Positions 1,247 through 57,122 are shown, counted from the stretch's first letter. The stretch is 64,000 nt of DNA from Candidatus Woesearchaeota archaeon (GCA_023265685.1 JAHFSP010000001.1:54975-118974); one strand, 5' to 3'. Notes: generated from the sequence alone by a model not told the origin. Numbers and translations are program-made.

Positions 1247-1921
1247 CTACTGAGCACGAGAAGACATGACTCGAGTAAAGGAACCGCCGCTGTCATTCCA
1301 GCCACCAATGAGGTTCGAGTCGCCATGACTCTTCACGAAGAGCGCCCTCGTTTCGCCAACGGGAAGATTGGGAACAAGATGCGTATTCATTGCTGTGTAA
1401 TTTGAACTTTGTCCTTCCCACTGGCGTTCAACGTATTGATCAAGTGTATTTCTTCCTGCAAATTGCCAGACTGGGTGGGCTTTTGCTTGAGCTTTTGTGA
1501 GGAGAGTGTTATATAACCCATCTGCCCCATTGAATTCTTGGACATTAATACCATCAGCAACGAGGGAATCGTACTCCACAATAATTAATGATGGACGTGC
1601 CCTTTCGTGTATGTGTAGTAACGCGTCAGAGATGAGGGAGATCTTGAAGAGACCGTTTGGTCCGTAGGTGATTGAGGAACAGCTGTCGTCCCATCTTGTG
1701 CCGAGGTCCCAGTTGTTGAGACGGGCGAGCATGATTTCTTCGACAGTGAGGGGACGATAGATCGCTTCACCGTCAAGAACGTGAGTAGGATGGAGAACGG
1801 ATAGTCCTGCTTGTTGGTCTTGGTAGCAAGCGGCTTGGAGAGAGTGGTAGCCTTGGGCCCAGGTTCTTGTTTGAGGCATGAGTTCGACTGATTTTCCAGT
1901 AAGATTTTCGAGAAGTGACAT
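1247..1921 (-). CDS. Paralog-family protein copy 1 (unknown function, 224 aa, no signal peptide)
   Basis: 224-aa ORF highly similar to the ORFs at 27520..28197 and 33230..33910. Shared motifs include WAQGYH, ITYGPNGLFKISL and AHPVWQFAG. The C-terminal ~30 aa are hypervariable. Confidence 0.8.
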   Translation of the reverse strand: MSLLENLTGKSVELMPQTRTWAQGYHSLQAACYQDQQAGLSVLHPTHVLDGEAIYRPLTVEEIMLARLNNWDLGTRWDDSCSSITYGPNGLFKISLISDALLHIHERARPSLIIVEYDSLVADGINVQEFNGADGLYNTLLTKAQAKAHPVWQFAGRNTLDQYVERQWEGQSSNYTAMNTHLVPNLPVGETRALFVKSHGDSNLIGGWNDSGGSFTRVMSSRAQ

Positions 1922-2155: not shown

Positions 2156-3661
2156 TTGATGAGCCTTTTGAACATATCTATTCTGAAAACAGATATTCTT
2201 TCGATGCGCGATTTTTCTCGTGAAGAGGTCGAAGAGATTATTCACAAAGCATTAGAATTAAAACGAACTAAAAAAACAAACACGCAAGACCTGAATTCTC
2301 TTAGTCATAATAAAATTCTTGCGTCATTATTTTTTGAGAATTCTACTCGTACACGAGAGAGTCATGAACTTGCGGCTACAAAGTTAGGTATGAACATTAT
2401 AGGGTTTGCGGGAACAGAAGGAACTTCTGTTAAGAAAGGCGAACCTTTGGCAGATACTGCACGTATGTATGCTGGTTTCGAGGCAGATGTGGTGGTCATG
2501 CGACATAATCTTGATGGGGCAGCACGCTTTGTTGCAGATGTGGTGAATGTTCCGGTGATTAACGCAGGTGATGGTGCGAATGCTCATCCAACTCAGACGC
2601 TGCTTGATCTGATGACGATTTTTGAGAAATTTGGGACGATTGATAATTTGAAAATTGCGATGGTGGGGGATCTCAAATATGGCCGCACAGTGCACTCTTT
2701 GTTGCAGGGATTGGCATTGTTTCGCAACGTAGAAATATGGGCTGTCGCACCCCCTGGTTTAGAAATGCCGGCTCATTGTATTGCTGAGTTTGAAGAGCGT
2801 ACTGGTACCAAAATTTTCTATACTCCTCATCTTCAAGAGGTATTGGATAAAGCCCAAGTGTTGTATATGACCAGAATTCAACGCGAACGTTTTCCAACTA
2901 GCGTAGAAGGAGAACATGAATTTAAGAAGGTGAGTGGGATGTATGAATTAACTTCTCAGGTACTCACACGAGCAAATCCTTCATTGTGTGTGATGCATCC
3001 ATTGCCACGCGTTAAACATAAACTTGAGATTAGTCTTGATGTTGATGCATCACCACGTGCATTATATTTTGAACAGGCTCGTAATGGAGTATTTATTCGA
3101 CAAATTTTGATTTCACACCTACTTGGAGTGCAGAAGACTAAAATTGAAAATAAAGAAGAAAATGGATTATGGCGGGAGCGATTTGTGAATGGACAAGATA
3201 AAAAAGAGAGTTATTTGTATCGGCTCGATAACGGCACGTTGATTGATCATCTTGAACCGGGAAAAGGCCCTCTCGTCCACTCTTTATTAGGATTAGAAAG
3301 ACTTCAAACTACAGTTGTTCAAGCTCTTAACATTGCAAGTACAAAATATGGGCGCAAAGATGTGTTAGCAATTCATAATATGCGCCTCACGCCACGTCAA
3401 TTATGGAAAATCGCTTTGGTAAGTGAACGTGCCTCAGTAAATTTTATTGAAGACAAACGAGTGGTTCAGAAGGGAACAGTGATATTGCCACGCGTACTTG
3501 AAAGACTGTTACTGTGCCAAAATGTAAATTGTGTGACTCGACCAGAACATTTTGAACATGCGCCAAGTAAATTTATTGTAGAACAAGATAAACCACTACG
3601 TTTGCGATGTTATTATTGTGAGCGGACATGTGGCCAGGAAGACGTGGAGTTGTTAAAGTAA
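2156..3661 (+). CDS. pyrBI: Aspartate carbamoyltransferase catalytic chain fused to regulatory chain (PyrB-PyrI fusion)
   Basis: The N-terminal ~300 aa carry ATCase motifs (STRTR, HPTQ, HPLP). The C-terminal ~160 aa carry a PyrI-like zinc domain (CxxxxC...CYYCERTC). The true start may be the internal Met at about 2204 (MRDFSREEVEEI). Confidence 0.85.
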   Translation: MMSLLNISILKTDILSMRDFSREEVEEIIHKALELKRTKKTNTQDLNSLSHNKILASLFFENSTRTRESHELAATKLGMNIIGFAGTEGTSVKKGEPLADTARMYAGFEADVVVMRHNLDGAARFVADVVNVPVINAGDGANAHPTQTLLDLMTIFEKFGTIDNLKIAMVGDLKYGRTVHSLLQGLALFRNVEIWAVAPPGLEMPAHCIAEFEERTGTKIFYTPHLQEVLDKAQVLYMTRIQRERFPTSVEGEHEFKKVSGMYELTSQVLTRANPSLCVMHPLPRVKHKLEISLDVDASPRALYFEQARNGVFIRQILISHLLGVQKTKIENKEENGLWRERFVNGQDKKESYLYRLDNGTLIDHLEPGKGPLVHSLLGLERLQTTVVQALNIASTKYGRKDVLAIHNMRLTPRQLWKIALVSERASVNFIEDKRVVQKGTVILPRVLERLLLCQNVNCVTRPEHFEHAPSKFIVEQDKPLRLRCYYCERTCGQEDVELLK

Positions 3662-3735: not shown

Positions 3736-4443
3736 CTATAGTCTTATTTTTGGTGTTGTTTTACTTACTATTGCTGAACTATATTGTCCCCCACAGAATT
3801 CTATGAGGAGATCTTCAATTTGACGAAGAAGAACACGTAGTTGTGGTGTTGTAACAGGAGCAAGAACCGGAATCTGGATAAGAATGGAAGTGGAATGGGC
3901 ATTAGGAAGAGTTTTTTTATTTTTCCAGAAATCAAGATGAGTTCCAAGAATATTTTTTTGATCACGATGATAGAGCGTTCCTTTGGCAAGAGTGAGAAGA
4001 AGACGAACTCGTTCTGTTCCGTTAGCAAGATCGTAGGTAATAGGTCCATGGATTTTTGATAGGTCATCTACGCTCATTGGAATGAGAGATTGAAGGCTTT
4101 GATATCGAACCAATTCGGTTGCGGTATCATTAGCACAAATGGAATGATGTTGCAAAACATGAGCAATGAGATTTTCAACTGCGGTTTGGTAATGGTGAGC
4201 ACGGGAACCAAATTCTTGCTGTGCAATAACCCAAGGGGCAATAAGGTCATGCGTTTTGATATTGTCGTTATGAAACGTGCGTTTAATGTAAAGACTTATT
4301 TCTCCAAGTAAATGGTGAGCTTGTTGAAGGTGTTCACGGTTATTAATCATCGTTGCTTTAAGAATAGCGATACGTAGAGTGGGATAGCGCTTGAAGACAT
4401 CAGGTTGAACGCGGATGTCTATTTGTTTTATTTTTGATACCAT
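3736..4443 (-). CDS. Conserved hypothetical protein, possibly a solo B3/4 (PheT-like) domain protein
   Basis: 235-aa ORF. Weak resemblance to stand-alone B3/4 domain proteins (IRVQPDVFKRYPTLRIAIL). Low certainty. Confidence 0.3.
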   Translation of the reverse strand: MVSKIKQIDIRVQPDVFKRYPTLRIAILKATMINNREHLQQAHHLLGEISLYIKRTFHNDNIKTHDLIAPWVIAQQEFGSRAHHYQTAVENLIAHVLQHHSICANDTATELVRYQSLQSLIPMSVDDLSKIHGPITYDLANGTERVRLLLTLAKGTLYHRDQKNILGTHLDFWKNKKTLPNAHSTSILIQIPVLAPVTTPQLRVLLRQIEDLLIEFCGGQYSSAIVSKTTPKIRL

Positions 4444-4452
4444 GGTTAGATT

Positions 4453-4803
4453 CTATTTTTTGTTGTATTTAGTAGTCTTCAAATTAGATTGTTTAGATAT
4501 TCTCCCAATCTGTTGTTGATAACGGTAATTACGTACACGTTGAACGAAACGACGAAACAATCCCATGCGTTGCTGTGATGAAGGTACACCAAAATGGCTA
4601 TTAAGATGTTCAAGGTTGTATCGGATATCTTCCAGAACGCGGGTGCGTTTATGATCAAAGTAGATTCGACTTAGAGTGAGAATAACATAAAGACCAAAAA
4701 TTCCCCCCACTAACACACTAATTTTACCAATGAGTGGACCAGTAATAGAGCTAAGAGGAATATTGGTTACTGAATTGAGAATTTCAGATTCGTTACCGAT
4801 CAT
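4453..4803 (-). CDS. Hypothetical membrane protein (one TM segment)
   Basis: 116-aa ORF with a hydrophobic stretch ITGPLIGKISVLVGGIFGLYVILTL. Confidence 0.4.
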   Translation of the reverse strand: MIGNESEILNSVTNIPLSSITGPLIGKISVLVGGIFGLYVILTLSRIYFDHKRTRVLEDIRYNLEHLNSHFGVPSSQQRMGLFRRFVQRVRNYRYQQQIGRISKQSNLKTTKYNKK

Positions 4804-4842
4804 AACTCATAGAGGTGAAAAAGACTATTTATATATTTCGTC

Positions 4843-6141
4843 ATGGGTGTTGGAATAGTTATTACGCGGGTTTATATAGTCAAAAATATTGACTGTAGAA
4901 AGAAAAGAGAAAGTAAGATGGTATCAGCATTACTCACGATTATTATTGCATTAACATTATCCTACATATTAGGCGAAATATCAAAAAAGATAGGATTACC
5001 GCGCATCGTAGGTAGTTTAGTTACAGGAATTCTTCTTACAATAGGGTATGTTAAACAAGTAGTACTCATTCCGGAAAATCAGGATTTCCTCTCATTACTT
5101 GCAGACTTAGGTGTTATTTTGCTCTTTTATTATATCGGTTTAGAGGCTAAATTTGAAGCCTTTGGCAAGAACGTTAAACGTTCTGTGATGATTTCGTTGT
5201 TTAACAGTCTTATTCCGTTTGCCATGGGATTCTTTGTCTGCCATTATCTGTTTGGATTCGATTTGGTTACAACGTTAGTTGTGAGTGTTGCTCTCTCAGT
5301 AAGTTCTCAAGCAGTGGCAATTGATATTTTGGATGAACTTAATTTCTTAAAATCAAAAATTGCCAATATGATCTTGTTTACGGTTGCCGTTGATGATATT
5401 ATTGAGATGGTCTTGATCACAGGGATGCTTTCTTTTTTGCACATTGCGATTACCAAAATGACATTATCAAGGTTGTGTATAGAGGTACTTATTTTTGTAG
5501 GGATCATGTTACTAATCCGATTTTGGATTTTACCGTGGGTACTAAAATTTTTCGAGAAAGAAAAATCAAGCACTGGTCGGTTTACGATCTCATTAATTGT
5601 TGTGTTAATCATTGCAAGTCTTGCAGAATATTTCTCAGTAGGGTATTTAATCGGCGCACTGATTGCAGGAATTATCACCAAACAAACTATCTATAAAGAT
5701 CCGAAAATTGCAAACTGGAAAGAACATGACGTGGCGCGGTCGATTCACATCATCGCGTTTGGATTCTTAATCCCTCTTTTCTTTGTCTGGGTGGGGAGCA
5801 ATATCGATCTAAGCATGGTGGGAGAGCATGTTGGATTTATTTTGATATTTACTCTAATTGCGACCGTAGGAACGGTTTTGGGAACAGCTTTAGCGGTGTA
5901 TCTTACCTCGGGAACATTTCATGAAGGATTAATTTTAGGATGGGGATTAAACGCCAAAGGAGATCTAGAGTTAGTTATTGCAAGCCTTTCTCTGAAAGCA
6001 TCATTAATTGAGCCATATATTTTTAGCGGAATTGTCATGATGTCATTATTAACAACCATTATTTCTCCGATTGTTTTTGCTCACATGATTAAGAGGAAGA
6101 TGGGTGTGGAACCAAAAGTTGTTGTAAAGAGGAAAGCGTAG
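4843..6141 (+). CDS. Monovalent cation:proton antiporter (CPA2/KefB-like Na+/H+ exchanger family)
   Basis: 432-aa polytopic membrane protein with CPA-type architecture. Probable true start is the Met at 4918 (MVSALLTIII). Confidence 0.7.
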   Translation: MGVGIVITRVYIVKNIDCRKKRESKMVSALLTIIIALTLSYILGEISKKIGLPRIVGSLVTGILLTIGYVKQVVLIPENQDFLSLLADLGVILLFYYIGLEAKFEAFGKNVKRSVMISLFNSLIPFAMGFFVCHYLFGFDLVTTLVVSVALSVSSQAVAIDILDELNFLKSKIANMILFTVAVDDIIEMVLITGMLSFLHIAITKMTLSRLCIEVLIFVGIMLLIRFWILPWVLKFFEKEKSSTGRFTISLIVVLIIASLAEYFSVGYLIGALIAGIITKQTIYKDPKIANWKEHDVARSIHIIAFGFLIPLFFVWVGSNIDLSMVGEHVGFILIFTLIATVGTVLGTALAVYLTSGTFHEGLILGWGLNAKGDLELVIASLSLKASLIEPYIFSGIVMMSLLTTIISPIVFAHMIKRKMGVEPKVVVKRKA

Positions 6142-6319
6142 ATTTTAGAGAGACTTATTTTGGATAGCAACTACATTTTCTACTGAACCTTATGCATGTA
6201 CATTTCCTTGAGGAGTGTGGTTGGAAAGAGTTTAGCAAGTTGGTGATTCTGCCATTAAATAAATTTTTTAATACATTCAGAGCAGATGGAACATTCTTAA
6301 ATATTGAGAAAGAAAAAGT

Positions 6320-6525
6320 AGCCCCGCGCGGACAGTCGAGCTTCGCTCTCGTTGGTTTCGTGAGCGAAACTATTCGAACCGCGGTCAAAGCCTCTCCTCA
6401 CTCTCTGTTCGGGATTTTCCTTACAGAAAGCTCCAAAGGGCTCTATGCTAGTCCACTACACTCCGCGAAGCTTTCAGGGCTTCTCCACGGGGCTGTGAAC
6501 TTGCACACAGCAGGGCTAATTTTCT
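6320..6525 (+). ncRNA. Candidate structured ncRNA (GC-rich island with terminal helix UAGCCC...GGGCUA); identity unresolved
   Basis: About 205 nt, markedly GC-rich in AT-rich intergenic DNA. 5' and 3' ends are complementary (tagccc/gggcta). Internal long-range complementarity exists (cgagcttcgc vs gcgaagcttt). The overlapping ORFs (6192..6533+, 6155..6388-) look non-protein-like. Strand is uncertain. Confidence 0.25.
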
Positions 6526-6608
6526 TTTTCTAGAGCTTGTTTATAAATATTTTGGACGCGCAGGGTTCATCTAGGAAATTAATGAGGGGCTAATTTTTTC
6601 TTACAAAA

Positions 6609-7205
6609 CTATTCGCACTTTTCTTCATAACTTGCAAGAGAAACGGTGAATTTTACTCGCTTCACAGTAGGATGGGTAATGATACTACTAGTTTCACCTT
6701 GTATTAGAGTAATAAGCGTTTCTTCGAGAATTTTACCTGCGTTTTTCTTGAGCAAAAGTAAAGGTACTCGCGGTTTAACTCCTTGACAATATCCGCCAAA
6801 CGTGTTGAGTTTCCATTCTAAAGCACCAGCAGCAGTATATGTCCCTTGACCTGGAGTAAGAGAATAGGTTTCATCATCACTGGTATGAAACGTTGTTTTG
6901 GTAAGGCGACATAGTTTAGCACAATTTGTTACATTGTTGACATCAGAAAGATGACGACACGACCCATCAATACATAATTTACTATCTTGACATTCACTAT
7001 TACGTTGACAAGCTACTAGGACAGGAGGTGCTATTTCAACTGCTTGGATAGTAGGGATAGGCGGGGTTACATTTTCTACTTGAATAGAGGGAGAAGTATC
7101 TGTAGTGGCTGAGGGCGCAGAGGACGAACGAGGTTTCGTGCAGGAGATAAGAAAGATACTTAGGGCAATGATAATAATAAGAGGTAGGTACTGTTTTGGT
7201 TTCAT
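6609..7205 (-). CDS. Secreted/lipoprotein-like Cys-rich protein
   Basis: N-terminal signal peptide followed by Cys (MKPKQYLPLIIIIALSIFLISC). Multiple cysteines, no recognisable domain. Confidence 0.5.
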   Translation of the reverse strand: MKPKQYLPLIIIIALSIFLISCTKPRSSSAPSATTDTSPSIQVENVTPPIPTIQAVEIAPPVLVACQRNSECQDSKLCIDGSCRHLSDVNNVTNCAKLCRLTKTTFHTSDDETYSLTPGQGTYTAAGALEWKLNTFGGYCQGVKPRVPLLLLKKNAGKILEETLITLIQGETSSIITHPTVKRVKFTVSLASYEEKCE

Positions 7206-7279: not shown

Positions 7280-8764
7280 GTGCCCCATTATAAAAACGCC
7301 ATGGTAGTGGATCTTGCATCATTGGTTGTTCCTGGAACTGTGTATCAAGTGGCACTTTCGTATGATACTAATTTACAATTAAGCATTAGAGGAGGCCCTC
7401 AGCTTCTCCAAACCACTTTTTTTGAACCAACCTTAATACAAGGTTATTTGGCAGCGGAATTGGTCTCAAAGGCAATCGCAAAAGAAGCAGGCAAACCTAC
7501 TGCACCCGTAAATATTGAAACATTGAATAATTATGTTCGTATTGTTGGAGAATGGTATCAAAGTTGCGTTATAGATAAAAAATTTTTTAGAACCATTAAT
7601 CAAGGTCAATATGGTATCTATTTTCCGCAAGGAATTGAGATTTCACAAGAAATTGAAGATATTTTAGAACAAACAGCTTTGGATGCTGTTAATTCCATTC
7701 TTACATTAACTGCTCAATATCAAGTCCCTTTTTCTTCTGAAGAGATATTGTGTTTTCTTGGTGAGAACACGACTGAGGGACCGAGATTGTTGTTGGCAGG
7801 ATCACTCATTTGGGGAAGCAAGCCCTCTTTTGACGCGTTGCGATATGTTAGTGAACATACTGATGTTAAAACAATTCTAAGTGTTGCTAGTAATAGATAT
7901 GGGAACACGCTTGCCGAGCGTCTAAAAAATCAGGAATATGTAGCAGGTGTTGAGTCGAGTCTTAGTGAATTATTACAAGTAGCCGGAAATTTGGAAATTA
8001 TTACTCCAGAAGAAACTAAGACTACACTTGTGGTACGTTCTATAAATTTATTTATTAAAAGCAAAGTAAAACAAACTCTTCCTGAGGGTGCGATTGAACT
8101 ATTGGAGAAGATTTTCTTATCTACAGAACGGAACACCACAAATTTGAACCTGAAACAGTATTGCGCTCTTTTGAGAACGAATCTTACTGCGGGATTAATG
8201 TATTATTGTTTAATGAATCATGGAGATCCGGACCATAGTACGCAACATCGTCCATATTCTCTACGGCAACTCCAATTCGAGCTAGGTATGAAACATAGCG
8301 AAGTTTCAAGATTGAGTTTAGAGAGAAAACAATTACCTCTTCTCCCTATACCTCTTTCTTCGTCCCCCATTGTACCTCAAGTAGCCCCTCCTGTTGTGTC
8401 AGCACTTACGAAAGAAGTTGTGAGTCCACCAAATATGCCTCCTGAAACAAATACAACGCCTAAATGGGGCGTAGTTCGCTCACGTCGAGAATCAGTTGCG
8501 CCTCCTGAGTTGGCACCTCCAACAATATCATTTTTTGAATCAGAACGAGATGATGCGTTAAGAGGATTACTTCAGGGTTTTTTAGAAGAGGATTTAGGTG
8601 ATAATTTACCAAGAGATGGAACCGGAAATGATGGAACGGGAAATAATTCACCAAAAAATCTAGCAGAGACTCTAATACAGGGAAGATTAGAACCTAAAGC
8701 TAAACCAATATCTTCGCCACCAATTCCCGGTTTGGCAATATTCAAAAGAAAAAAAGATAAGTAA
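7280..8764 (+). CDS. Hypothetical protein with Pro-rich C-terminal region
   Basis: 494-aa ORF with a low-complexity P/S-rich tail (PIPLSSSPIVPQVAPPVV...). No known motifs recognised. Confidence 0.5.
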   Translation: MPHYKNAMVVDLASLVVPGTVYQVALSYDTNLQLSIRGGPQLLQTTFFEPTLIQGYLAAELVSKAIAKEAGKPTAPVNIETLNNYVRIVGEWYQSCVIDKKFFRTINQGQYGIYFPQGIEISQEIEDILEQTALDAVNSILTLTAQYQVPFSSEEILCFLGENTTEGPRLLLAGSLIWGSKPSFDALRYVSEHTDVKTILSVASNRYGNTLAERLKNQEYVAGVESSLSELLQVAGNLEIITPEETKTTLVVRSINLFIKSKVKQTLPEGAIELLEKIFLSTERNTTNLNLKQYCALLRTNLTAGLMYYCLMNHGDPDHSTQHRPYSLRQLQFELGMKHSEVSRLSLERKQLPLLPIPLSSSPIVPQVAPPVVSALTKEVVSPPNMPPETNTTPKWGVVRSRRESVAPPELAPPTISFFESERDDALRGLLQGFLEEDLGDNLPRDGTGNDGTGNNSPKNLAETLIQGRLEPKAKPISSPPIPGLAIFKRKKDK

Positions 8765-26777: not shown

Positions 26778-27032
26778 CTAATAGACTCTTTCTCTGTTAT
26801 CAACTTTTACAACAACAATTCTTTTTTCTTCATGATTAACTCTGTAAAGAGCCCGATAATCGCCTATTCTAATCCTAAATGTTGGTTCACTATAACCCTG
26901 AACTCTCTTTGAATCATGTGGAACCGGATTAAGAGCTAATTCCCCTAGTTTGTTAACAATCCTATCAAAAAGAATCTTTTCACATTTCTTAAGAAACTTA
27001 TCGGCCTGTTTATCAAGCGTTACTTCGAACAT
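26778..27032 (-). CDS. relE: RelE/ParE-superfamily toxin (mRNA interferase)
   Basis: C-terminal RIRIGDYRALYRVNHEEKRIVVVKVDNRERVY is a classic RelE motif. 84 aa. Overlaps the upstream antitoxin ORF by 20 nt. Confidence 0.8.
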   Translation of the reverse strand: MFEVTLDKQADKFLKKCEKILFDRIVNKLGELALNPVPHDSKRVQGYSEPTFRIRIGDYRALYRVNHEEKRIVVVKVDNRERVY

Positions 27033-27213
27033 TCTTAAGTTCCTCTAAAGAAATCAGTTTTCCAGCTTTCTCGTTTACAATACTCTCATCAATAAGTTTT
27101 TTTTCTTCTGCTGTGAGGATCGTATCTACATCTATCATGTGGGCTTTAATGTAATGAAGTTCATCCTTGATGTTCTTGAGTTCATCCATGATTAGTTCAG
27201 TTTCTGTTGCCAT
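27013..27213 (-). CDS. Putative antitoxin of the RelE pair
   Basis: 66-aa acidic helical protein immediately upstream of and overlapping relE. Confidence 0.5.
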   Translation of the reverse strand: MATETELIMDELKNIKDELHYIKAHMIDVDTILTAEEKKLIDESIVNEKAGKLISLEELKNVRSNA

Positions 27214-27239
27214 ATTTCACTGTAAGTAGAGGTAATTTA

Positions 27240-27365: not shown

Positions 27366-27519
27366 TATGATTGCTCACTGTTTTCACAGCGTCTCAAGGT
27401 AGTTGTAGAATAATGGAAGAGGATAAATTATTTTTTGAGTATTGGAAAGTAGGGGAAAATGTTGCGCGCGAGAATCTGAAGAGTTGTCCACTTTTTTGAC
27501 AGGCTTCGCCTGTGGCGCT

Positions 27520-28197
27520 CTACTCAGCGCGGATAGACACGACCCGAGCAAAGGAACCGCAGTCGTAGAGGTCGTAATTACCACCGAGGCTCGAATCGTA
27601 TTGATCGTTCACGAAGAGCGCCCTCATTTCACCAACTTGAGGATTGGAAACAAGATGCGTATTCATTGCGGTGTAATTTGAATTTTGTCCTTCCCACTGG
27701 CGATCAACGTAGGGATCAAGTGCATTTCCTCCTGCAAATTGCCAGACTGGGTGGGCTTTTGCTTGAGACTTTGTGAGTGGAGTGTCGTATATCCCGTCTG
27801 CTCTGTTGAATTCTCTGACGTTGACATCGTCAGCGATGAGAGAATCATACTCCATACGAGTGGATGTTTGATTGAATTCTTGTGGTAGGCGTAGTAACGC
27901 ATCGGAGACAAGAGAGATTTTGAAGAGGCCGTTTGGCCCATAGGTGATTGCAGAACAGCTGTCATTCCATTTTTGACCGAGGTCCCAGTTGCCGATACGG
28001 GCGAGCATGTTTTCTTCGACGGTGAGAGGACGGTAGATTGTTTTGCCGTCAAGAACATGAGTAGGGTGTTGTACAGTTCTTCCTGCTTGTTCGTCGGCTT
28101 TGCAGACGTCTTGGAGAGCGTGATAGCCTTGGGCCCAGGTTTTGGTTTGTGGCATGAGCTGAACGGTTTGTCCAGTAAGTTTTTCGAGGAATGACAT
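27520..28197 (-). CDS. Paralog-family protein copy 2 (225 aa)
   Basis: Same family as 1247..1921 and 33230..33910. The 5' ~235 nt are near-identical to copy 3. Confidence 0.8.
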   Translation of the reverse strand: MSFLEKLTGQTVQLMPQTKTWAQGYHALQDVCKADEQAGRTVQHPTHVLDGKTIYRPLTVEENMLARIGNWDLGQKWNDSCSAITYGPNGLFKISLVSDALLRLPQEFNQTSTRMEYDSLIADDVNVREFNRADGIYDTPLTKSQAKAHPVWQFAGGNALDPYVDRQWEGQNSNYTAMNTHLVSNPQVGEMRALFVNDQYDSSLGGNYDLYDCGSFARVVSIRAE

Positions 28198-28221
28198 GTA
28201 GAGGGTTGTAACCGGAAAGTG

Positions 28222-28229
28222 TTTATAAA
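28222..28229 (-). promoter_or_regulatory. TATA box ~25 nt upstream of the copy-2 start
   Basis: tttataaa, with the same downstream tttgttgttactttaaagttat block as at copy 3. Confidence 0.45.
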
Positions 28230-28481
28230 TTTTATCTTTTTGTTGTTACTTTAAAGTTATTATTGTTATCTTGATTTGGTAGTCCCACTATTTGACCAAT
28301 ACAATATTGAATATTTGCCTTACATGACCCATCAGTAAAACTTTCTCACTATTTTCCATACCATCTTTGTTTTGTCACAGTTCTTACAAAAAGAAAACAA
28401 AATTTCTGAACGTCTCGTTTCTCACTAGCCACTGGTCAAGTCCGCAAAACTCTTTTAAAGCGTTCTTTCTATAATAGAGGG

Positions 28482-30722
28482 ATGCTGCAGAACTTTTCAC
28501 CTCGATTGTATCAGCAAACTATCCTTGCAAGTGCTGCAACGAAAAATACCTTGGTGGTTTTGCCTACAGGAATGGGAAAGACCGGTATTGCGTTGTTGCT
28601 GGCGGCTCAGCGATTGATTCAATATCCTCAATCTAAGATTCTTTTACTTGCACCAACCAAACCGCTTTGTGAACAACATGTGGAAACGTTTCGTAAACAT
28701 TTGACTGTAGATGCTGAGAAGATCGTGTTGTTTACTGGGAGTGTTACACCGGTTAAACGGGCGGCGTTATGGAAGACAGCAACGGTAATTGTAAGTACGC
28801 CCCAAGGTCTGGAGAATGATATTATTAATAGGCGTATTGACCTTAAAGAAGTAAGTGGATTGATTATTGATGAGGCACATCATGCGACGGGTGATTATCC
28901 TTACGTATGGTTAGCGGGACAGTATGAGAAAAATGCGCAATATGCTCGTATTTTGGCTTTAACGGCGTCTCCAGGAACTGATTTAGAAAGTATAAAAGAG
29001 CTGTGTAAAAATTTGTTTATTGAGAAGATTGAAGTACGTACACAAGAAGATCACGACGTTGCTCAATACGTTCAAGAAGTAGACATGAATTGGATAAGTG
29101 TGGAGTTTCCACCACAGCTCAAAGAAATTCAAACTCAATTGAATCTGTGTAAAACATCGAAACTAAGTGCAATTATGCAATTAGGATTGAGCAAGAGTTC
29201 TAAACTAGGCAAAGGAGAATTATTGGGATTACAACAAGAATTGCAAAGTAAGTTAGCGCAAGAAGGTACTGATTTTAACGTTTTTAAAGCGTTGTCATTG
29301 CTTGCTGAGGCACTTAAAATTGATCATGCGATAGAGTTATTAGAAACGCAAGGAGCGAGCCAAACGTGTAGGTATCTTGAGAAATTACAATCAGAAGCAC
29401 GAATCTCAAATACCAAAGCGGTGAAAAACCTTGTTGTTGATGAACATTTCAAAGCAGCATTATATCTAGCACAACAGCAAGTGGTTGAGGGAGTTCAACA
29501 TCCTAAAATGGTGAAATTGTTGGAGTTGTTGACTCAGACTATTGCAAAAGATATCACTGCAAAAGCAATTGTATTCACTCAGTTTCGTGATACAGGTGAG
29601 TTGATCGTTAAAGAATTGGAGAAAAACTCTATCTCAGGGCACATTTTCGTTGGACAGGCAAAGAAAAATGGGGTGGGTTTTTCTCAAAAAAAGCAAAAAG
29701 AAATTCTCGAGAAATTTAGGGATGGTGTTTTTTCTGTCTTGGTTGCGACGTCGGTTGCTGAAGAAGGACTTGATATTCCAAAAGTGGATGGGGTTATATT
29801 CTACGAGCCAATCCCAAGTGCGATTCGTTCCATTCAGCGTCGAGGACGTACCGGCCGTCTGGAAAAAGGAGAAGTCACGATTCTCATGACAAAGGGTACA
29901 CGAGATGAGGTGTATCGTTGGGCAGCACATCACAAAGAGAAACGGATGTATCGACATCTTGATGAATTACGTAAAAATATCGGGTTGATTTTACCAGAGA
30001 TAATTCTACCAAAGAAAGAAGCAAAAAATATTGAGAAACCATTAATGTCGTATACTACACCTGCTCTGAATGTAATACCTAAAGTGGTAATTCTGGCTGA
30101 TCATCGTGAAAAGAGTAATCGAGTAGTGAAAGAGTTGATCGACCTTAACGTTCATGTGACTCTTGAACAGCTCGATCATGCTGATTATCTACTTTCAGGT
30201 CGCGTGGCAGTTGAATTAAAACAAGTTCCTGATTTTGTTGCATCACTCATCGATGGACGAATCTTAGATCAGTTACGTGATTTAAAAAGATTGTTTGAGC
30301 GTGCAGTATTAATTATTGAGGGCGATGAAGATATTTATAGCGTGCGTAACGTTCACCCAAATGCGTTAAGAGGATTACTTGCAACCATTGTCTTGGATTA
30401 TGGTATCCCCATTTTATATACACGAAGTGCAAAAGAAACTGCGGCATTACTCGCAGTGATGGCAAAACGAGAACAAGAAAAGGATACTGATTTTTCTGTG
30501 CATTCTTTAAAGCCAAAAACTCTTTCTCAACAGCAGGAATATGTCGTAGCGGCATTGCCAGGAATTGGAATTCAGACCGCACGCGTGTTGTTGTTACATT
30601 TTAGATCTGTGGAAAGAGTAATGAGTGCAACGAAGAAAGAGTTGATGGAAGTGGAAGGCGTTGGTGTGAAAATCGCGGAGAGGATCAAAGAATTAGTTGA
30701 GAAAAAGTATGATGCCAAATAA
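28482..30722 (+). CDS. hef: Hef helicase-nuclease (FANCM/XPF-like: SF2 helicase + ERCC4 nuclease + HhH2)
   Basis: PTGMGKTGIA, DEAHHATG, helicase C motifs (QRRGRTGR), a C-terminal ERCC4 nuclease (ILADHREKSN...), and a terminal HhH. 746 aa. Confidence 0.85.
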   Translation: MLQNFSPRLYQQTILASAATKNTLVVLPTGMGKTGIALLLAAQRLIQYPQSKILLLAPTKPLCEQHVETFRKHLTVDAEKIVLFTGSVTPVKRAALWKTATVIVSTPQGLENDIINRRIDLKEVSGLIIDEAHHATGDYPYVWLAGQYEKNAQYARILALTASPGTDLESIKELCKNLFIEKIEVRTQEDHDVAQYVQEVDMNWISVEFPPQLKEIQTQLNLCKTSKLSAIMQLGLSKSSKLGKGELLGLQQELQSKLAQEGTDFNVFKALSLLAEALKIDHAIELLETQGASQTCRYLEKLQSEARISNTKAVKNLVVDEHFKAALYLAQQQVVEGVQHPKMVKLLELLTQTIAKDITAKAIVFTQFRDTGELIVKELEKNSISGHIFVGQAKKNGVGFSQKKQKEILEKFRDGVFSVLVATSVAEEGLDIPKVDGVIFYEPIPSAIRSIQRRGRTGRLEKGEVTILMTKGTRDEVYRWAAHHKEKRMYRHLDELRKNIGLILPEIILPKKEAKNIEKPLMSYTTPALNVIPKVVILADHREKSNRVVKELIDLNVHVTLEQLDHADYLLSGRVAVELKQVPDFVASLIDGRILDQLRDLKRLFERAVLIIEGDEDIYSVRNVHPNALRGLLATIVLDYGIPILYTRSAKETAALLAVMAKREQEKDTDFSVHSLKPKTLSQQQEYVVAALPGIGIQTARVLLLHFRSVERVMSATKKELMEVEGVGVKIAERIKELVEKKYDAK

Positions 30723-30798
30723 TTTTGGAGGGCATTAGTTTTTAGTAGTAACTTGTTAGGAGTAAATTTTATAAAAGAGGGATGATTTTAGACTTCTT

Positions 30799-31320
30799 GT
30801 GGAAACTACTCAGATTATCTATAAAAAAGCACCAACAGTTCAAGGGTTAATTACAGATTTACGTCCCCATCTTACAGATGCTATTGGATCTATTGCGAGA
30901 GGTGAATCGCTTGAAATAACTCTCGCATTTGAACCTGAATCTTGGGAAGAATTTTTGAGAACAAGTGATTATGCTTATGAAAGACGTGCGAGATTAGGTG
31001 ACTCTCATCTTGGTAGAGAAGGTCAAGAGATGTTAGAGGCTGCAATTAAATATAGTCTCCTACTAGATAGCAGAAATCTTAGAGTTGAAATTCAACTATT
31101 TTATCCCCAAAGCATTGCACAATTACAAACATGTGGCCCTGCTATCTACCAGAATGCCGTTGCTCAAACAGGTCAACTACCTTTTCCATTTTTTGATGAG
31201 ATTGATTTTAGTGAGCTTATACGGGAAGAGAAACTGGGTAAAAAAGAACATCGCGAGATACATGTTACATTTAGTAAAGCAGAATCAATGGATACGGTTA
31301 ATCGCTATTATCAAGATTAA
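30799..31320 (+). CDS. Hypothetical protein
   Basis: 173-aa ORF, no motif recognised. Confidence 0.4.
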   Translation: METTQIIYKKAPTVQGLITDLRPHLTDAIGSIARGESLEITLAFEPESWEEFLRTSDYAYERRARLGDSHLGREGQEMLEAAIKYSLLLDSRNLRVEIQLFYPQSIAQLQTCGPAIYQNAVAQTGQLPFPFFDEIDFSELIREEKLGKKEHREIHVTFSKAESMDTVNRYYQD

Positions 31321-31343
31321 TGTAGATTAATGTATAACTCATT

Positions 31344-32084
31344 TCATTTCTTAGACATCTTTCCAGTCTGCCAGTCACGCAGAATAAGTCTACTGGTTGA
31401 TTCGAGATCGGGTTGGCCACCTTTTTGGAGACGTTTGATTTTATAGCCAACCTGTTCGAGTATGTCTTGACTATTTTTGCCGCTGACTTGGTAATAGTCA
31501 CAGATTAATTGCTTTTTCTCTTTGATGAGACCGATGGCGGCGGCTTCAGGGTCTTTGATTTTGGCATAATCGATTGCACCAGTTTTACCGTGTTTAATGT
31601 CAGCATTGCCTTTTTCTTTGAGAGGAAAGACACCAGGAGTATCGAGAAGAACAATTTTTCTATCAACACGAATTTTTTGTAAGCCTTTGGTGAACCCACT
31701 CTCAGAAGACGTTCTTGCCGCACCGCGTCCTGCTAGTGCATTGATTAATGATGATTTTCCTACGTTAGGATATCCCACGATTCCTACCACAACATTTTCT
31801 CCATGCGAAAGTGCGAGAATTTTTTTCTTAAGCAGAGTTGTTCCAAGGTGTTCACGACTTGAAATGAAGATAGATGGTCGTAAATCCTTGCGGTCTTTTT
31901 TAAGCTGATCAATTTCCACTAAGTCACACTTTGTGATGACATAGAGAAGTTTTTTCCCTGATTGAAGAACTTTTCGTTCGATTTCCGGATGTCGAGTATC
32001 TTCAATGGAACGCGCATCAAGCACTTCGATGATAATATCAGATTGTTCCAAGACGCGATTGACATGTCGCCAGAATGAGGGCAT
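31344..32084 (-). CDS. Circularly permuted GTPase (YlqF/YawG family, ribosome-biogenesis type)
   Basis: G4 (TKCDL) precedes G1 (GYPNVGKSS) and G3 (DTPG), the hallmark permuted order. Confidence 0.7.
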   Translation of the reverse strand: MPSFWRHVNRVLEQSDIIIEVLDARSIEDTRHPEIERKVLQSGKKLLYVITKCDLVEIDQLKKDRKDLRPSIFISSREHLGTTLLKKKILALSHGENVVVGIVGYPNVGKSSLINALAGRGAARTSSESGFTKGLQKIRVDRKIVLLDTPGVFPLKEKGNADIKHGKTGAIDYAKIKDPEAAAIGLIKEKKQLICDYYQVSGKNSQDILEQVGYKIKRLQKGGQPDLESTSRLILRDWQTGKMSKK

Positions 32085-32151
32085 GGGAAGAGATGGGTGA
32101 GCGGTGTTTATAAAAGTCGCTGAAGAGAAGTTAAAAATTATGCATTTAAAA

Positions 32152-32538
32152 TCACGCTGCCAACGCTTCTTGGTTTTTAATCTCTTGTTCTACTGATTTG
32201 TATAATTCATGAATCTTACGGATAATTTCTGGTTTCTGTTTTTTCTGAGATAGGCCAATATAGGCTTTGAGTAATTTGATTTCTTGGAGTTCGCGTTGCA
32301 TGATTTCGAGAAATTTTTTCTTTCTTTCTGCAGAAAGATTTCGTGCAATAACATTTTCTGCCAAAACACTTTTTTCCAGACGACTTAGATATTCGTTAAT
32401 GCTATTTGCTAATTTGATTGTGTCCTTATCTTTTTCTCCTACTTCGTTGAGAACAAACAGCAAGTCTTCAATTTGTGTGGCAATAACAGCATACACTTTC
32501 CTGATTTTTTCCACGTATAATTGTACTGCTTCTGCCAT
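32152..32538 (-). CDS. Hypothetical coiled-coil protein
   Basis: 128 aa, heptad-rich, no known motif. Confidence 0.35.
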   Translation of the reverse strand: MAEAVQLYVEKIRKVYAVIATQIEDLLFVLNEVGEKDKDTIKLANSINEYLSRLEKSVLAENVIARNLSAERKKKFLEIMQRELQEIKLLKAYIGLSQKKQKPEIIRKIHELYKSVEQEIKNQEALAA

Positions 32539-32539
32539 T

Positions 32540-33133
32540 TTATTTCTCTTTACCTAAGATGTCAGCAGTACTTGCACCTAAGACTGCGAGAAGTTCATTT
32601 GTTGCAATAAGACGATATATCTGTGGAAGAGGAGTGGTAAAGTCTATGAAGCCAAAGACAAAGAGAGTTACTACGATGACTCCTGTTGAAATCAGGAAAA
32701 TGGTAGCAACTCGCAAAGGGATAAACCGGAATATTTTGATTTCTTTGACTTTGCGAAATCCTGAATAATACATGAAGAAGAATGCGACCACTAACGAGAG
32801 AACATAGAGGGTTGTGGCACGATTAACAGATACCCTGTCAGCGATCTCAACGCCATAAAAAAATGCGAAGTGACCAACTGTCCCGATTAATGCACCAATG
32901 GTACTTCGGGTGATGTCGGAACGAGTGATTTTCGTTAATGGATGACTGCTTTTCTCATTTTCAATTTCTTTTTTTATGGTCTCGAGTTCTTGGATTTCTT
33001 GAAGCTGGAGTCGTTCGACGTTTTCTTCTTCTATGAGGAGATCTTTTGGGGTTGGTCTTATTGAAGACAGTCTCGATTTTGGGAATTTAGAACTAGATGA
33101 TTGGGTCTTGGATGGTTTGCGTTTCTTTGCCAC
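32540..33133 (-). CDS. Hypothetical membrane protein
   Basis: 197 aa. Basic N-terminus, acidic coiled region, and several C-terminal TM helices. Confidence 0.45.
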   Translation of the reverse strand: MAKKRKPSKTQSSSSKFPKSRLSSIRPTPKDLLIEEENVERLQLQEIQELETIKKEIENEKSSHPLTKITRSDITRSTIGALIGTVGHFAFFYGVEIADRVSVNRATTLYVLSLVVAFFFMYYSGFRKVKEIKIFRFIPLRVATIFLISTGVIVVTLFVFGFIDFTTPLPQIYRLIATNELLAVLGASTADILGKEK

Positions 33134-33229
33134 GAAGGTAACGAAAGAAAAAGAGAATATAAGTCTTTCGAGTTGAGTGATTATTATGTTATTTTTAGAG
33201 TCTTAGAGAGAAGTCAAGCTTGTGAGATA

Positions 33230-33910
33230 CTAGCGAGCGCGGATGGGCACGACCCGAGCAAAGGAACCGTTGACGTAGGGGTCATAATTCTTACAACCAA
33301 AGTTCGAGCTGTTATGATTGCCCACGCAGAGCGCTCTCGTTTCACCAACTTGAGGATTGGAAAAAAGACATGTGCCCATTGCTGCGTAATCTGAATTTTT
33401 TCCTTGCCACTGGCGTTCAACGTATTGATCAAGTGCATTTCCTGCTGCGAATTGCCAGACTGGATGGGCTTTTGCTTGGGACTTTGTGAGTGGAGTGTCG
33501 TATATCCCGTCTGCTCTGTTGAATTCTCTGACATTGACACCATCAGCGACGAGAGAATCATACCCTATATTGAGAGATAGTTTATTGAAGTCTCGGGGTA
33601 GACGCAGAAGAGCATCAGAGATGAGAGAGATTTTGATACGACCGTTGGGTCCATAGGTGATTGCAGAACAGCTGTCATTCCATTTTTGACCGAGGTCCCA
33701 GTTGCCGATACGGGCGAGCATGTTTTCTTCGACGGTGAGAGGACGGTAGATTGTTTTGCCGTCAAGAACATGAGTAGGGTGTTGTACAGTTCTTCCTGCT
33801 TGTTCGTCGGCTTTGCAGACGTCTTGGAGAGCGTGATAGCCTTGGGCCCAGGTTTTGGTTTGTGGCATGAGCTGAACGGTTTGTCGAGTAAGTGTTTCGA
33901 GAAGTGACAT
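33230..33910 (-). CDS. Paralog-family protein copy 3 (226 aa)
   Basis: Same family as copies 1 and 2. N-terminal half is near-identical to copy 2 at the nucleotide level. Confidence 0.8.
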   Translation of the reverse strand: MSLLETLTRQTVQLMPQTKTWAQGYHALQDVCKADEQAGRTVQHPTHVLDGKTIYRPLTVEENMLARIGNWDLGQKWNDSCSAITYGPNGRIKISLISDALLRLPRDFNKLSLNIGYDSLVADGVNVREFNRADGIYDTPLTKSQAKAHPVWQFAAGNALDQYVERQWQGKNSDYAAMGTCLFSNPQVGETRALCVGNHNSSNFGCKNYDPYVNGSFARVVPIRAR

Positions 33911-33935
33911 GTTGGGCTACTATGATTAAAGTGCA

Positions 33936-33944
33936 TTTATAAAT
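33936..33944 (-). promoter_or_regulatory. TATA box ~26 nt upstream of the copy-3 start
   Basis: tttataaat followed by gtttcttttgttgttacttttaagttat, conserved with copy 2. Confidence 0.45.
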
Positions 33945-33970
33945 GTTTCTTTTGTTGTTACTTTTAAGTT

Positions 33971-34330
33971 ATGATCTATTCGGACCACTGTTTACATAAT
34001 CTTTTTATAAGTATTAAGTCTAGGATACCTATGGCATTCTCAAAACCGTTTCCAAAGCAGGTTCCAGGGAGTAATTATCCTCTTTGGGAGGAAGTGACGC
34101 TTGATGACCAAGAGGAGTATGAGGTAGAGGAGATTTGTCGTAGGGAGAATATGCGACTGATGGATCAGGCATTAAGCGATGCTAAAGTTTTGGCGATTAA
34201 GCATGGTATTAATGAGGATGGGATTCGTGCAACACTTGCGGTTTCTCTTTTTGAAAAACTAGCATCTCATGTGGTGTTTTGGAAAGAGCATCGTACCAAA
34301 GAGAGATGGGATGAGAAGAATCAGCGGTAG
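33971..34330 (+). CDS. Hypothetical protein
   Basis: 119-aa ORF. Likely start at the internal Met (MAFSKPFPK). Confidence 0.35.
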   Translation: MIYSDHCLHNLFISIKSRIPMAFSKPFPKQVPGSNYPLWEEVTLDDQEEYEVEEICRRENMRLMDQALSDAKVLAIKHGINEDGIRATLAVSLFEKLASHVVFWKEHRTKERWDEKNQR

Positions 34331-40991: not shown

Positions 40992-41103
40992 GCGGATCCG
41001 ATGGGATTTGAACCCACGATCTACAGCTATCGTCGTGAGATGAACTCTACAGCTCTGATCTCAGGTAGAAGGCTGTCGCGCTATCCAGGCTACGCTACGG
41101 ATC
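40992..41103 (-). tRNA. tRNA-Arg (anticodon UCU) with a 37-nt intron at the canonical 37/38 position
   Basis: Hand-folded. Acceptor ggatccg/cggatcc, U8A9, D-arm gcgt-agccuggaua-gcgc, anticodon stem acagc/gctgt, loop cuUCUa, T-arm gtggg-TTCAAAT-cccat. No encoded CCA. T-run follows the 3' end. Confidence 0.8.
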
Positions 41104-41158
41104 CACAAAAGCTTCTTCGTCAGATAACTTTTAAATATTTCGTCTATAAAAATGGTGT

Positions 41159-45929: not shown

Positions 45930-46466
45930 TTATTGCGTAGAATACAGATCTTTGCGTTTTTTCTCTAAGAAGGAGAAGACGCTTTTGTGCATTGAACCAT
46001 TAAGTAACATAGCAACGGCATCGCGACTAGCCATAACGTTGGCAACCTCACCAATAATACCAATGGTTTTTCCGTAAATAACAATATGGGTATCAGTGAG
46101 GCGTTCGATCTCTTCACGAGATTTGCCTTCTTTACCGATTACACGACCTTTGAGACGTTCCATGGTATTTTTATTTTTACCAGCAACATCTTTCATGTCG
46201 ATGAGTTCGAGAGTGTAATCAGTTTTGAGGAGTTCTAATGCGACTTTGGGATTAAAGCCGCGAGCAATAGCATGAACGATTTCTCTAGTGGTGTAGAGAA
46301 TGAGTCCGTCGTTGCCTTTGATTTCAACGTCGCCTTCTTTAGAGATTTGTAATTCACAGCCGGTTGATTCTTCGATCTCTTTCTTGGTTTTCCCTTCAGT
46401 CCCAATGAGTACGGCAACTCGTTCTTCAGGGATCTTGAGTTCATAAGAAAATTCATCTTCAGCCAT
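45930..46466 (-). CDS. KH-domain RNA-binding protein (archaeal Dim2/Pno1-like)
   Basis: Two KH-like units (VAVLIGTEGKTKKEIEE; VIGKEGKSREEIERLT). Adjacent to the RIO kinase, a common arrangement. Confidence 0.65.
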   Translation of the reverse strand: MAEDEFSYELKIPEERVAVLIGTEGKTKKEIEESTGCELQISKEGDVEIKGNDGLILYTTREIVHAIARGFNPKVALELLKTDYTLELIDMKDVAGKNKNTMERLKGRVIGKEGKSREEIERLTDTHIVIYGKTIGIIGEVANVMASRDAVAMLLNGSMHKSVFSFLEKKRKDLYSTQ

Positions 46467-56081: not shown

Positions 56082-57122
56082 TCATTTCCACTGATTTCTG
56101 GTATCGTAACTAACCACTTGATCACGGTCAGATACACCAAATCTGCCCTGTTTTGCAGCATACATCGCAAGATCAGCCTCTTCAATCAAAGCAGCAACTT
56201 CTTTCTTTTTATCGTTCCCAAAATAAGTAGTCAAACCTATGCTAGCAGTTTGTTGATGTTTTGTGTCAATACCTTTCTCTGCTAATCGCGAAGCATAATC
56301 TACTTCACGCACTGCCTTTAAGCATCGCTGCGCAACAAGCATTGCTTCATTTTGATTTTTAAGAATAAAAGCAAACACTAACTCTTCACCACCATACCGC
56401 AACCCAATATCCTCTTCACGTAAAGATTTTCTCATTGCTTGTGCTGAATTAGTAAGAACATAATCTCCAAAATCATGCCCATATTTATCATTCGCAAGTT
56501 TGAAATGATCTAAATCAGCAAGCAAGATCCCAATTCCATTATCTGTTTTGGTTACAGCGCAGGTTTCCAATAAAATTTTTATTCTCTCCATACCAATTTC
56601 CCGTCGAAGAAGACCAGTAAGATCATCATGGCTTAATTCATCAATTTTTCGTACTATTGTTAAATTATCAGCAATAACCTTAGCCATAAAACGAATCGTA
56701 TCTCGTGATGGATTAGCCTGAGTTGTTGGTGTATAAACATGAAGTTCTCCCATAACTTTCCCTCCAGCACTAACCATGGTTTCATGACGATAAGAACTCT
56801 CTCCAGTTTGTTGAGGGGCAAGTCCTACTGGCGTAAAAAGTTTTTCTAATGGGAGCAATTGTTCTCTTTCTAATTCACAGACACGCTTCTTATCCTTTTT
56901 ATAATCATTTTTTGCAGATTTTTCCAATTCAATACGAACCTGAGAACCAGGAATTATCGCACTTAAAAATGATTCATATCTGGCGATAGCAGTTGATACG
57001 CCATCTGCCATTTCATACAACCCCGTTAACAGAGTGTACAAATCTCTTTCTCGTAGATTAGAAAATGATCCATTGGCTCGTTCTCGAGCGTATTCAATGT
57101 GTTCTTGCAGCCCCATTTTCAT
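56082..57122 (-). CDS. GGDEF-domain protein (diguanylate cyclase-like; GGEEL variant of the signature)
   Basis: DDLTGLLRRE, DLDHFKLANDKYGHDFGDYVL, RYGGEEL, TASIGL and ADLAMYAAKQGR match GGDEF motifs in order. About 170 aa of N-terminal sequence with unknown sensory function. Confidence 0.7.
   Translation of the reverse strand: MKMGLQEHIEYARERANGSFSNLRERDLYTLLTGLYEMADGVSTAIARYESFLSAIIPGSQVRIELEKSAKNDYKKDKKRVCELEREQLLPLEKLFTPVGLAPQQTGESSYRHETMVSAGGKVMGELHVYTPTTQANPSRDTIRFMAKVIADNLTIVRKIDELSHDDLTGLLRREIGMERIKILLETCAVTKTDNGIGILLADLDHFKLANDKYGHDFGDYVLTNSAQAMRKSLREEDIGLRYGGEELVFAFILKNQNEAMLVAQRCLKAVREVDYASRLAEKGIDTKHQQTASIGLTTYFGNDKKKEVAALIEEADLAMYAAKQGRFGVSDRDQVVSYDTRNQWK

Follow-up and report, generated by a model that had tools for sequence, protein, structure and literature searches.

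Tails of three lectin-fold paralogs from a Woesearchaeota archaeon are probably orphaned variable regions of diversity-generating retroelements

Can a gene be recognized as a target of a diversity-generating retroelement (DGR) when neither a reverse transcriptase (RT) nor a template repeat (TR) lies beside it? This question is posed by a gene, copy B, at positions 27520-28197 (minus strand) of a 64,000-nucleotide stretch of Candidatus Woesearchaeota DNA, to which we refer as the window. In ultra-small symbiotic archaea, DGR variable proteins are thought to mediate attachment to hosts or ligands, and most DGR target families still lack an annotation. A first-pass annotation of the window had described a variable tract at the extreme C-terminus of the copy B product, resembling a DGR variable region (VR). 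We confirmed the position of this tract: copy B is an intact ORF for a 225-aa, single-domain protein with a C-type-lectin (AvpA-like) fold, and two paralogs, copy A (1247-1921, minus strand, 224 aa) and copy C (33230-33910, minus strand, 226 aa), vary in the same place. What produced these tails, and is a retroelement still rewriting them?

Divergence along copies A, B, and C

The ORFs of all three copies are intact (3/3), and dN/dS among the paralogs was ~0.2 in codons 1-90 and 117-160. We infer that the proteins are still functional and under purifying selection. A box shared by the three genes, TTTATAAA, lies ~25-40 nt 5' of each ATG (28216-28263, 33928-33975, and upstream of 1921). It looks like an archaeal TATA-type promoter element, which would fit expression of all three paralogs.

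Divergence was distributed unevenly. Copies B and C are near-identical over codons 1-90, with a dS of 0.07 compared to 0.19-0.81 downstream. This near-identity is confined to the 5' 270 nt (27928-28197 in B, 33641-33910 in C), so that divergence along the gene forms a mosaic, and it suggests either gene conversion or a recent duplication of part of the gene. We note that metagenome contigs end exactly at this B/C repeat, as in L021, which covers window positions 28032-33791. A second variable zone occupies codons 91-116 (27850-27927 in copy B, minus strand), where dN reached 0.32-0.63. DGR features are absent from this zone, and it is not a DGR-type VR.

The tail is bounded on its 5' side by the RALFV codons (27610-27624, minus strand), which encode an invariant beta-strand and serve as the 5' anchor of the VR. 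TR homology also begins at RALFV in homologous DGRs. In the codon alignment, copy C carries RALCV at this anchor. The variable core that follows has 17 codons in copy B (27559-27609, minus strand, NDQYDSSLGGNYDLYDC), 16 in copy A (1286-1333, minus strand), and 18 in copy C (33269-33322, minus strand), which has an extra AAG codon. The tails of A, B, and C therefore measure 16, 17, and 18 codons and differ by whole-codon indels; a fourth related protein, P0003, has 19. Downstream, the core is bordered by the invariant codons GGT TCC TTT (GSF) and then by a conserved GC-rich end. Of the interval given in the annotation (27520-27640), the truly variable part is 27559-27609, whereas 27610-27624 and 27523-27558 proved to be conserved.

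The composition of the core is distinctive. In copy B, 15 of the 17 codons are NNY, and the scaffold residues S (TCG), G, and L are kept; across the paralogs, the scaffold codons TCG (Ser) and GGT (Gly) are conserved among variable codons. NNY codons make up 44/51 (86%) of the combined A, B, and C tails vs. 378/624 elsewhere (p 1e-4), and the residues N, D, Y, S, G, and H account for 38/51 (75%) vs. ~31% elsewhere. Tail dN was 0.52-1.17, with dN/dS of 1.0-1.9. The interconvertible codon columns to which the annotation had drawn attention (GGC/TAC/AAC, AGT/GAT/AAT, and AAC/AGC/AAC) are all present in our codon alignment.

The core is followed by the codons GSFARVVSIRAE (27523-27558, minus strand), a conserved segment that encodes the last beta-strand. 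By our own count, G or C occupies 22 of its 36 bases in copy B (61%), compared to 39% in the window. A 21-mer, GGTTCCTTTGCTCGGGTCGTG, is present three times (with 0, 0, and 3 mismatches) vs. 0.00 expected by chance. We call the segment IMH-like by analogy with the IMH-encoded beta5 strand of AvpA (PMC5006420). Seven nucleotides past the stop codon of copy B begins a hairpin, ACAGGC-GAA-GCCTGT (27499-27513, minus strand), which appears in the centroid structure and is followed by CAAAAAA (27492-27498, minus strand). Thus, the GC-rich segment and the hairpin of the annotation are both real, with the hairpin falling outside the interval it had given. Hairpins with a GRA trinucleotide loop have been described for Nanoarchaeota DGRs (Paul et al. 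2015, PMC4372165), and the GAA loop of copy B fits this description. A GC-rich IMH and a downstream hairpin with a GRNA loop (GRA in archaea) mark the 3' end of DGR VRs, and copy B combines a GC-rich 3' segment with a downstream GRA-loop hairpin.

The other two copies are less well preserved here. Across the IMH-like segment and hairpin of copy A, seven positions that are G in copy B have become A. Its hairpin (ATAGAC-AAA-GCCTAT) is weaker, and one pair has changed in a compensatory way relative to B (C-G to T-A). Copy C has no hairpin downstream. We read the G-to-A changes of copy A as decay of both elements, and copy C as having lost its hairpin. Whole-segment folding z-scores of the 3' flanks were not significant, and the case for the hairpin comes from comparison across loci rather than from folding energy.

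Fold, relatives, and templated homologs

The three copies are paralogs within a DPANN archaeal family of single-domain proteins with a C-type-lectin fold, and the loop of ~18 codons between the RALFV strand and the last strand, GSF(L/A)RV, is the variable surface of this family. Neither Pfam nor NCBIfam contains a family for the three proteins, and 40 tested relatives were also without a Pfam domain. Their close clade comprised four proteins (A, B, C, and P0003) in a database of 5.8 billion sequences. A profile search of 1.84 billion representatives recovered 228 relatives, in which the domain is nearly always C-terminal. The family tail consensus is LRALFVxxLxxxSxAxGxxxLxxxGSFLRVA, with x standing for N, D, Y, S, or G. 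The family was absent from the viral contigs searched.

An AF2 (AlphaFold) model of copy B built on the family alignment reached a pLDDT of 91 and placed the variable tract in a loop (residues 197-216) between strands 190-196, which include RALFV, and 217-221, which the IMH-like segment encodes. In a Foldseek search with this model, the top match was 5ioo_A (AvpA; E 5.5e-8, TM 0.62/0.66), the sole PDB match with E < 0.001; canonical C-type lectins came next at E > 0.6. AvpA (PDB 5IOO) serves a Nanoarchaeota DGR as its variable protein (Handa et al. 2016, PMC5006420). The likeness includes a single-domain C-type-lectin fold of ~210-250 aa in a DPANN archaeon. It also includes the layout, with a short VR that follows the penultimate strand, an IMH-encoded last strand that does not vary, and a downstream hairpin (PMC5006420). 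However, AvpA and the copies share no detectable sequence similarity: searches of all PDB sequences with family profiles A4 and A3 returned nothing at E cutoffs of 1 and 10, and the copy family lacks the AvpA sequence motifs GxxVVVYAH, HPxxxPFxG, and RFxGV, with HPVWQF and SFARV resembling two of these by eye only. In AvpA, an extension of 46 residues past the VR includes the hairpin, whereas the window protein ends 12 residues past its VR and the hairpin is non-coding. Moreover, AvpA has an RT and TR adjacent to it, while the window copies have neither.

The link to DGRs is more direct in closer relatives. We retrieved eight homologous loci from Nanoarchaeota, Woesearchaeota, and related metagenome-assembled genomes (MAGs), using a query alignment of 13 sequences. 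Two of the loci, L007 and L010, contain templated cassettes. At L007 (CAYHVV010000049.1), a TR at locus positions 8049-8126 reads AAT AAT CTT AAT AAC AAT TCC AAT GCC AAC GGC AAC AAT AAT CTT AAC AAC AAC GGC TCC TTC. It accompanies three paralogs with VRs of equal length, and each VR differs from it by 13-14 mismatches at TR adenines and 2-3 non-adenine mismatches, all but one of the latter at the ends of the compared stretch. An RT fragment was detected by tblastn with DGR RTs at 8301-8693, at the contig end. At L010 (CAYSAF010000040.1), a TR at 3935-4012 lies directly upstream of an RVT_1 RT of 366 aa (4045-5145). Because L007 and L010 combine AAY-codon TRs and adenine-specific mismatches with an adjacent RT, the family is a genuine DGR target family. 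With homologs of this kind, the AvpA fold, and the GRA-loop hairpin, the resemblance to DGR VRs proposed by the annotation becomes more than a resemblance: at the level of the family, it is nearly certain that the tails and the DGR VRs of an AvpA-fold lectin family are homologous.

The window copies belong to the same family as the L007 and L010 targets (31-37% identity) and share with them the VR position, the scaffold, the presence of several paralogous targets per locus, and a GC-rich segment, G-N-A-loop hairpin, and A run 3' of the VR. By contrast, L007 and L010 have an 18-codon, AAY-rich TR and an RT within 2 kb, whereas the window copies have neither, are 16-18 codons long, and carry an altered scaffold. 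Relative to the family pattern xxLxxxSxAxGxxxLxxx and the TRs of L007 and L010, the window tails depart from the scaffold at position 3 (L to Q/H) and position 9 (A to L/F), and copy C has further changes (G to C, L to P).

Templating is not uniform within the family either. L010 also has one frameshifted VR and one VR with several non-adenine mismatches, and one paralog at L008 is shorter by a codon, indicating that VRs no longer fitting a template occur in the family. In other genomes, 7 of 9 homologous loci had no local TR in an AAY-density scan, and these proteins may therefore normally depend on a template far away. Two sets of three VR-bearing paralogs, L004 and L007, occur in one MAG (CAYHVV01). 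Their invariant anchors disagree at positions that are not adenine, which rules out the L007 TR as a template for the L004 copies; either this genome has a second DGR or the L004 copies are orphans too. The L007 targets are interleaved with genes for an AAA+ ATPase (511 aa, 774-2309) and a radical-SAM protein (266 aa, 6209-7009), which could have accessory or co-diversified functions.

Across the family, the 3' flanks of the VRs contain TCCTCC..GTAGCCCC, followed by a GC-rich stem of 5-7 bp with a GNA or GNRA loop. After the hairpin, GCGC and an A run of 6-9 are found in nearly every member (L003-L010, L016, and window copies A and B), with a T run in three. The A run is kept whether it encodes Lys-Lys-stop or is non-coding, and so looks like a DNA-level element. 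To our knowledge, such a run has not been described for DGR targets.

Two other known systems offer useful comparisons. Seven tvpA-related remote targets of Treponema denticola are, like the window copies, scattered paralogous lectin-fold genes far from an RT (Wu et al. 2018, PMC5758913). However, those targets match their TR with A-to-N differences only, whereas no TR was found for the window copies and their lengths are incompatible with a common one. Woesearchaeota AvpA homologs from AR3 and AR17, reported as "not part of DGRs" (Handa et al. 2016, PMC5006420), are also lectin-fold relatives without a retroelement. These were described as fold relatives only, while in the window copies a former VR, an IMH-like segment, and a hairpin can be recognized.

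Template searches and variation between assemblies

We searched ~79 kb of the 131,250-bp source contig (the window and ~15 kb of flanks) for an RT and a TR. No RT domain was present among window ORFs of at least 250 aa or in the precomputed Pfam annotation of the flanks. A tblastn search with 40 DGR RTs found none in the window, in ~5 kb upstream (L001), or in ~10 kb downstream (L011, L012), and the same search recovered the RTs of L007 and L010 as positive controls. No fourth copy of the tail was found in the window with blastn-short, and an AAY-density scan, in which the control TRs scored 12-13 of 18 codons, revealed nothing TR-like in the window, L001, L011, or L012. These searches bear out the annotation's observation that the window holds neither component. 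A TR for copy B would carry the anchors GCGCTCTTCGTG ... GGTTCCTTT with 17 codons between them. No cognate TR differing from a VR essentially only at TR adenines was found in the window and flanks. DGRs can act on targets >100 kb away (PMC5758913), and the absence of an RT and TR within ~79 kb is therefore no proof of absence.

Several candidates were rejected. A TR candidate at 46032 (plus strand), with 8/18 AAY codons, is antisense within an ORF, has neither anchor, and showed no blastn-short match to the tails. Scanning metagenomes for GCGCTCTNCGTGN{42,66}GGTTCCTTTNCTC gave two chance matches in a high-GC bacterial membrane-protein gene dissimilar to the window, and pattern scans of viral contigs gave either nothing or one chance match in a high-GC contig. 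A 225-aa ORF just past the window end (L011:2148-2825) was considered as a fourth paralog and is unrelated.

The tails themselves also bear on the existence of a shared template. VRs of equal length that differ only at adenines are found at the L007 control and not among the window copies. As their lengths are unequal, a single TR cannot serve all three, and at most one copy fits any given TR. B and C differ by C/T at third codon positions, in line with the annotation's remark that some third-codon and C/T differences fall outside adenine mutagenesis; in our count from the codon alignment, 5 of the 6 B-C differences that do not involve adenine are C/T transitions. Judging from the aligned codons, a TR common to B and C would have to carry adenine in third codon positions, and one of its codons would be TAA.

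Different assemblies gave a consistent picture for the tails at each locus, with one exception. The consensus of tail A was unchanged in two ENA assemblies (over 11.9 kb, identity was 99.98% in L001 and 100% in L002), that of tail C was identical in L021 (3 samples) and L022 (2 samples), and that of tail B was identical in L023 (2 samples); this identity holds for consensus sequences only, and some of the samples may be related. The exception is an 8,225-bp contig (v4R45WJR) of ERZ27297570 whose genes are ordered as at the B locus. Its ParE and 207-aa neighbor proteins are 100% identical to those in the window, and the protein at the B locus, P0003, is 76% identical to B. Differences between B and P0003 cover residues 101-216, the C-terminal half of the protein, and thus reach beyond the tail. 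Residues 121-150 of P0003 include 14 that A, B, and C all lack, and its tail has a 2-codon insertion. Allele replacement, paralog exchange, or an assembly chimera could each possibly explain P0003. Its divergence suggests a locus-specific hypervariability that extends beyond the VR, through allele or paralog exchange, unless the contig is such a chimera. A divergent B allele amid identical neighbors also hints that these receptors are under strong diversifying pressure even without a retroelement. We note that a ParE-family toxin (84 aa) and a 66-aa upstream partner gene (26778-27215, minus strand) lie directly downstream of B, and that the pair is also found beside P0003.

Origin of the tails and other genes in the window

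In the templated relatives, a DGR rewrites this loop: an AAY-codon TR is reverse-transcribed with errors at adenines and the resulting cDNA replaces the VR. Targeting in these relatives would depend on the GC-rich, IMH-like 3' segment and the downstream G-N-A-loop hairpin. Homology and composition point to the same origin for the tails of A, B, and C, which were probably made by a DGR in the past. Such past action would account for their NNY codons rich in N, D, Y, S, and G, for the scaffold codons, and for the GC-rich segment and hairpin. The tails would since have been orphaned, changing through ordinary point mutations, gain or loss of codons, and exchange with paralogs or other alleles. 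Ongoing DGR action is unsupported, given the lack of an RT or TR in reach, the unequal lengths, the non-adenine scaffold changes, and the identity of the tails across assemblies. Overall, we consider the window tails to be probably orphaned or fossil DGR VRs that now change by ordinary mutation, indels, and exchange.

It is also conceivable, if somewhat unlikely, that at least one of the tails, most plausibly that of B, is still being rewritten by a DGR located elsewhere in the genome and consisting of an RT and one or several TRs. Copy B retains what appears to be the ancestral length and all cis elements, namely RALFV, the scaffold residues S, G, and L, the GC-rich segment, and an intact hairpin with a perfect stem and GAA loop, and is the sole copy that might be a live remote target. 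Targets far from an RT are documented (PMC5758913), most loci of the family are without a local TR, and Woesearchaeota and Nanoarchaeota are very rich in DGR RTs, with >7,900 homologs. However, none of the best 120 of these >7,900 homologs lies on a contig of 131,250 bp, which is weak evidence against a remote RT. Most differences between the B and P0003 tails affect the first or second position of codons for N/D/Y/H-type residues, as a live target might show, yet the divergence of this pair extends outside the tail. The constant tail consensus across assemblies, the length mismatch that leaves room for at most one copy per TR, the third-position adenines and TAA codon demanded of a common B/C template, and the C/T transitions between B and C all weigh against continued rewriting as well.

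Exchange of sequence offers a different source of recent change. Gene conversion with paralogs or unseen alleles could now be the main origin of diversity in the C-terminal half, tail included. Such cassette-like recombination would fit the B/C near-identity that stops after codon 90, the 76% identity of P0003 to B beside 100% identical neighbors, and the unique block and tail insertion of P0003. But a donor for that block was not found, with only four proteins in the clade among 5.8 billion sequences, and P0003 may be an assembly chimera between paralogs. Recombination would in any case account for recent change and not for the DGR-like composition of the tail, and we judge it unlikely to be the main process. 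The annotation's fallback, plain paralog divergence, assumes a surface loop under relaxed or diversifying selection with no retroelement ever involved in this lineage. The indels and non-adenine substitutions of the tail, the second variable zone without DGR features, the B/C mosaic and the divergent allele P0003, and the RT and TR missing from the window and flanks all speak for it, and as a description of recent history it is partly right. As an account of the tract's beginnings we find it very improbable, however, because the same loop is TR-templated in homologs, the tails are enriched in NNY codons and in N, D, Y, S, G, and H, conservation extends to the GC-rich segment and to the GRA-loop hairpin, which has a compensatory A/B pair, and the A run is kept whether coding or not.

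The orphaned-VR reading can also be extended. These proteins may be lectin-fold receptors that were born of a DGR, lost the retroelement, and stayed hypervariable by exchanging segments across the ligand-binding half, with the cis elements left as relics. The 76% identity of P0003 to B amid identical neighbors motivates this switch of mechanism, which we offer as a speculative proposal with a low chance of being right. In a variant, copy B may still be a live remote target from which A and C have dropped out.

The orphaned state that we favor for the tails does not overturn current understanding, but it has practical value for annotation. Two control cassettes and an AvpA-like fold tie an unannotated family of 228 representatives to DGRs, and RALFV, 18 NNY-rich codons, GSFLRV, and a G-N-A-loop hairpin together form a signature by which its members can be annotated. 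The window copies illustrate how an untemplated target looks: whole codons are gained or lost, scaffold residues change, and the IMH and hairpin decay through G-to-A substitutions. This appearance helps to tell live from fossil VRs, and surveys that start from the RT would miss such genes.

Other genes in the window also merit mention. A 346-aa protein (56082-57122, minus strand) contains a GGDEF diguanylate-cyclase domain (E 3e-31) in an otherwise archaeal, DPANN-like stretch; c-di-GMP signaling proteins are uncommon in archaea. Fused PyrB and PyrI are encoded by a 501-aa ORF (2156-3661, plus strand) that joins the OTCace catalytic and PyrI regulatory domains of aspartate carbamoyltransferase. 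A tRNA of 112 nt (40993-41104, minus strand) was matched by Rfam at 54 bits and missed by ARAGORN; it presumably contains an intron, which fits an archaeal origin. Near the window end, a 783-aa protein (61223-63574, minus strand) has Big_9, cadherin-like, and PKD domains, and a 331-aa relative (L011:7135-8130) adjoins it immediately beyond the window. These proteins are likely surface adhesins, and several metagenome contigs stop at the 783-aa gene.
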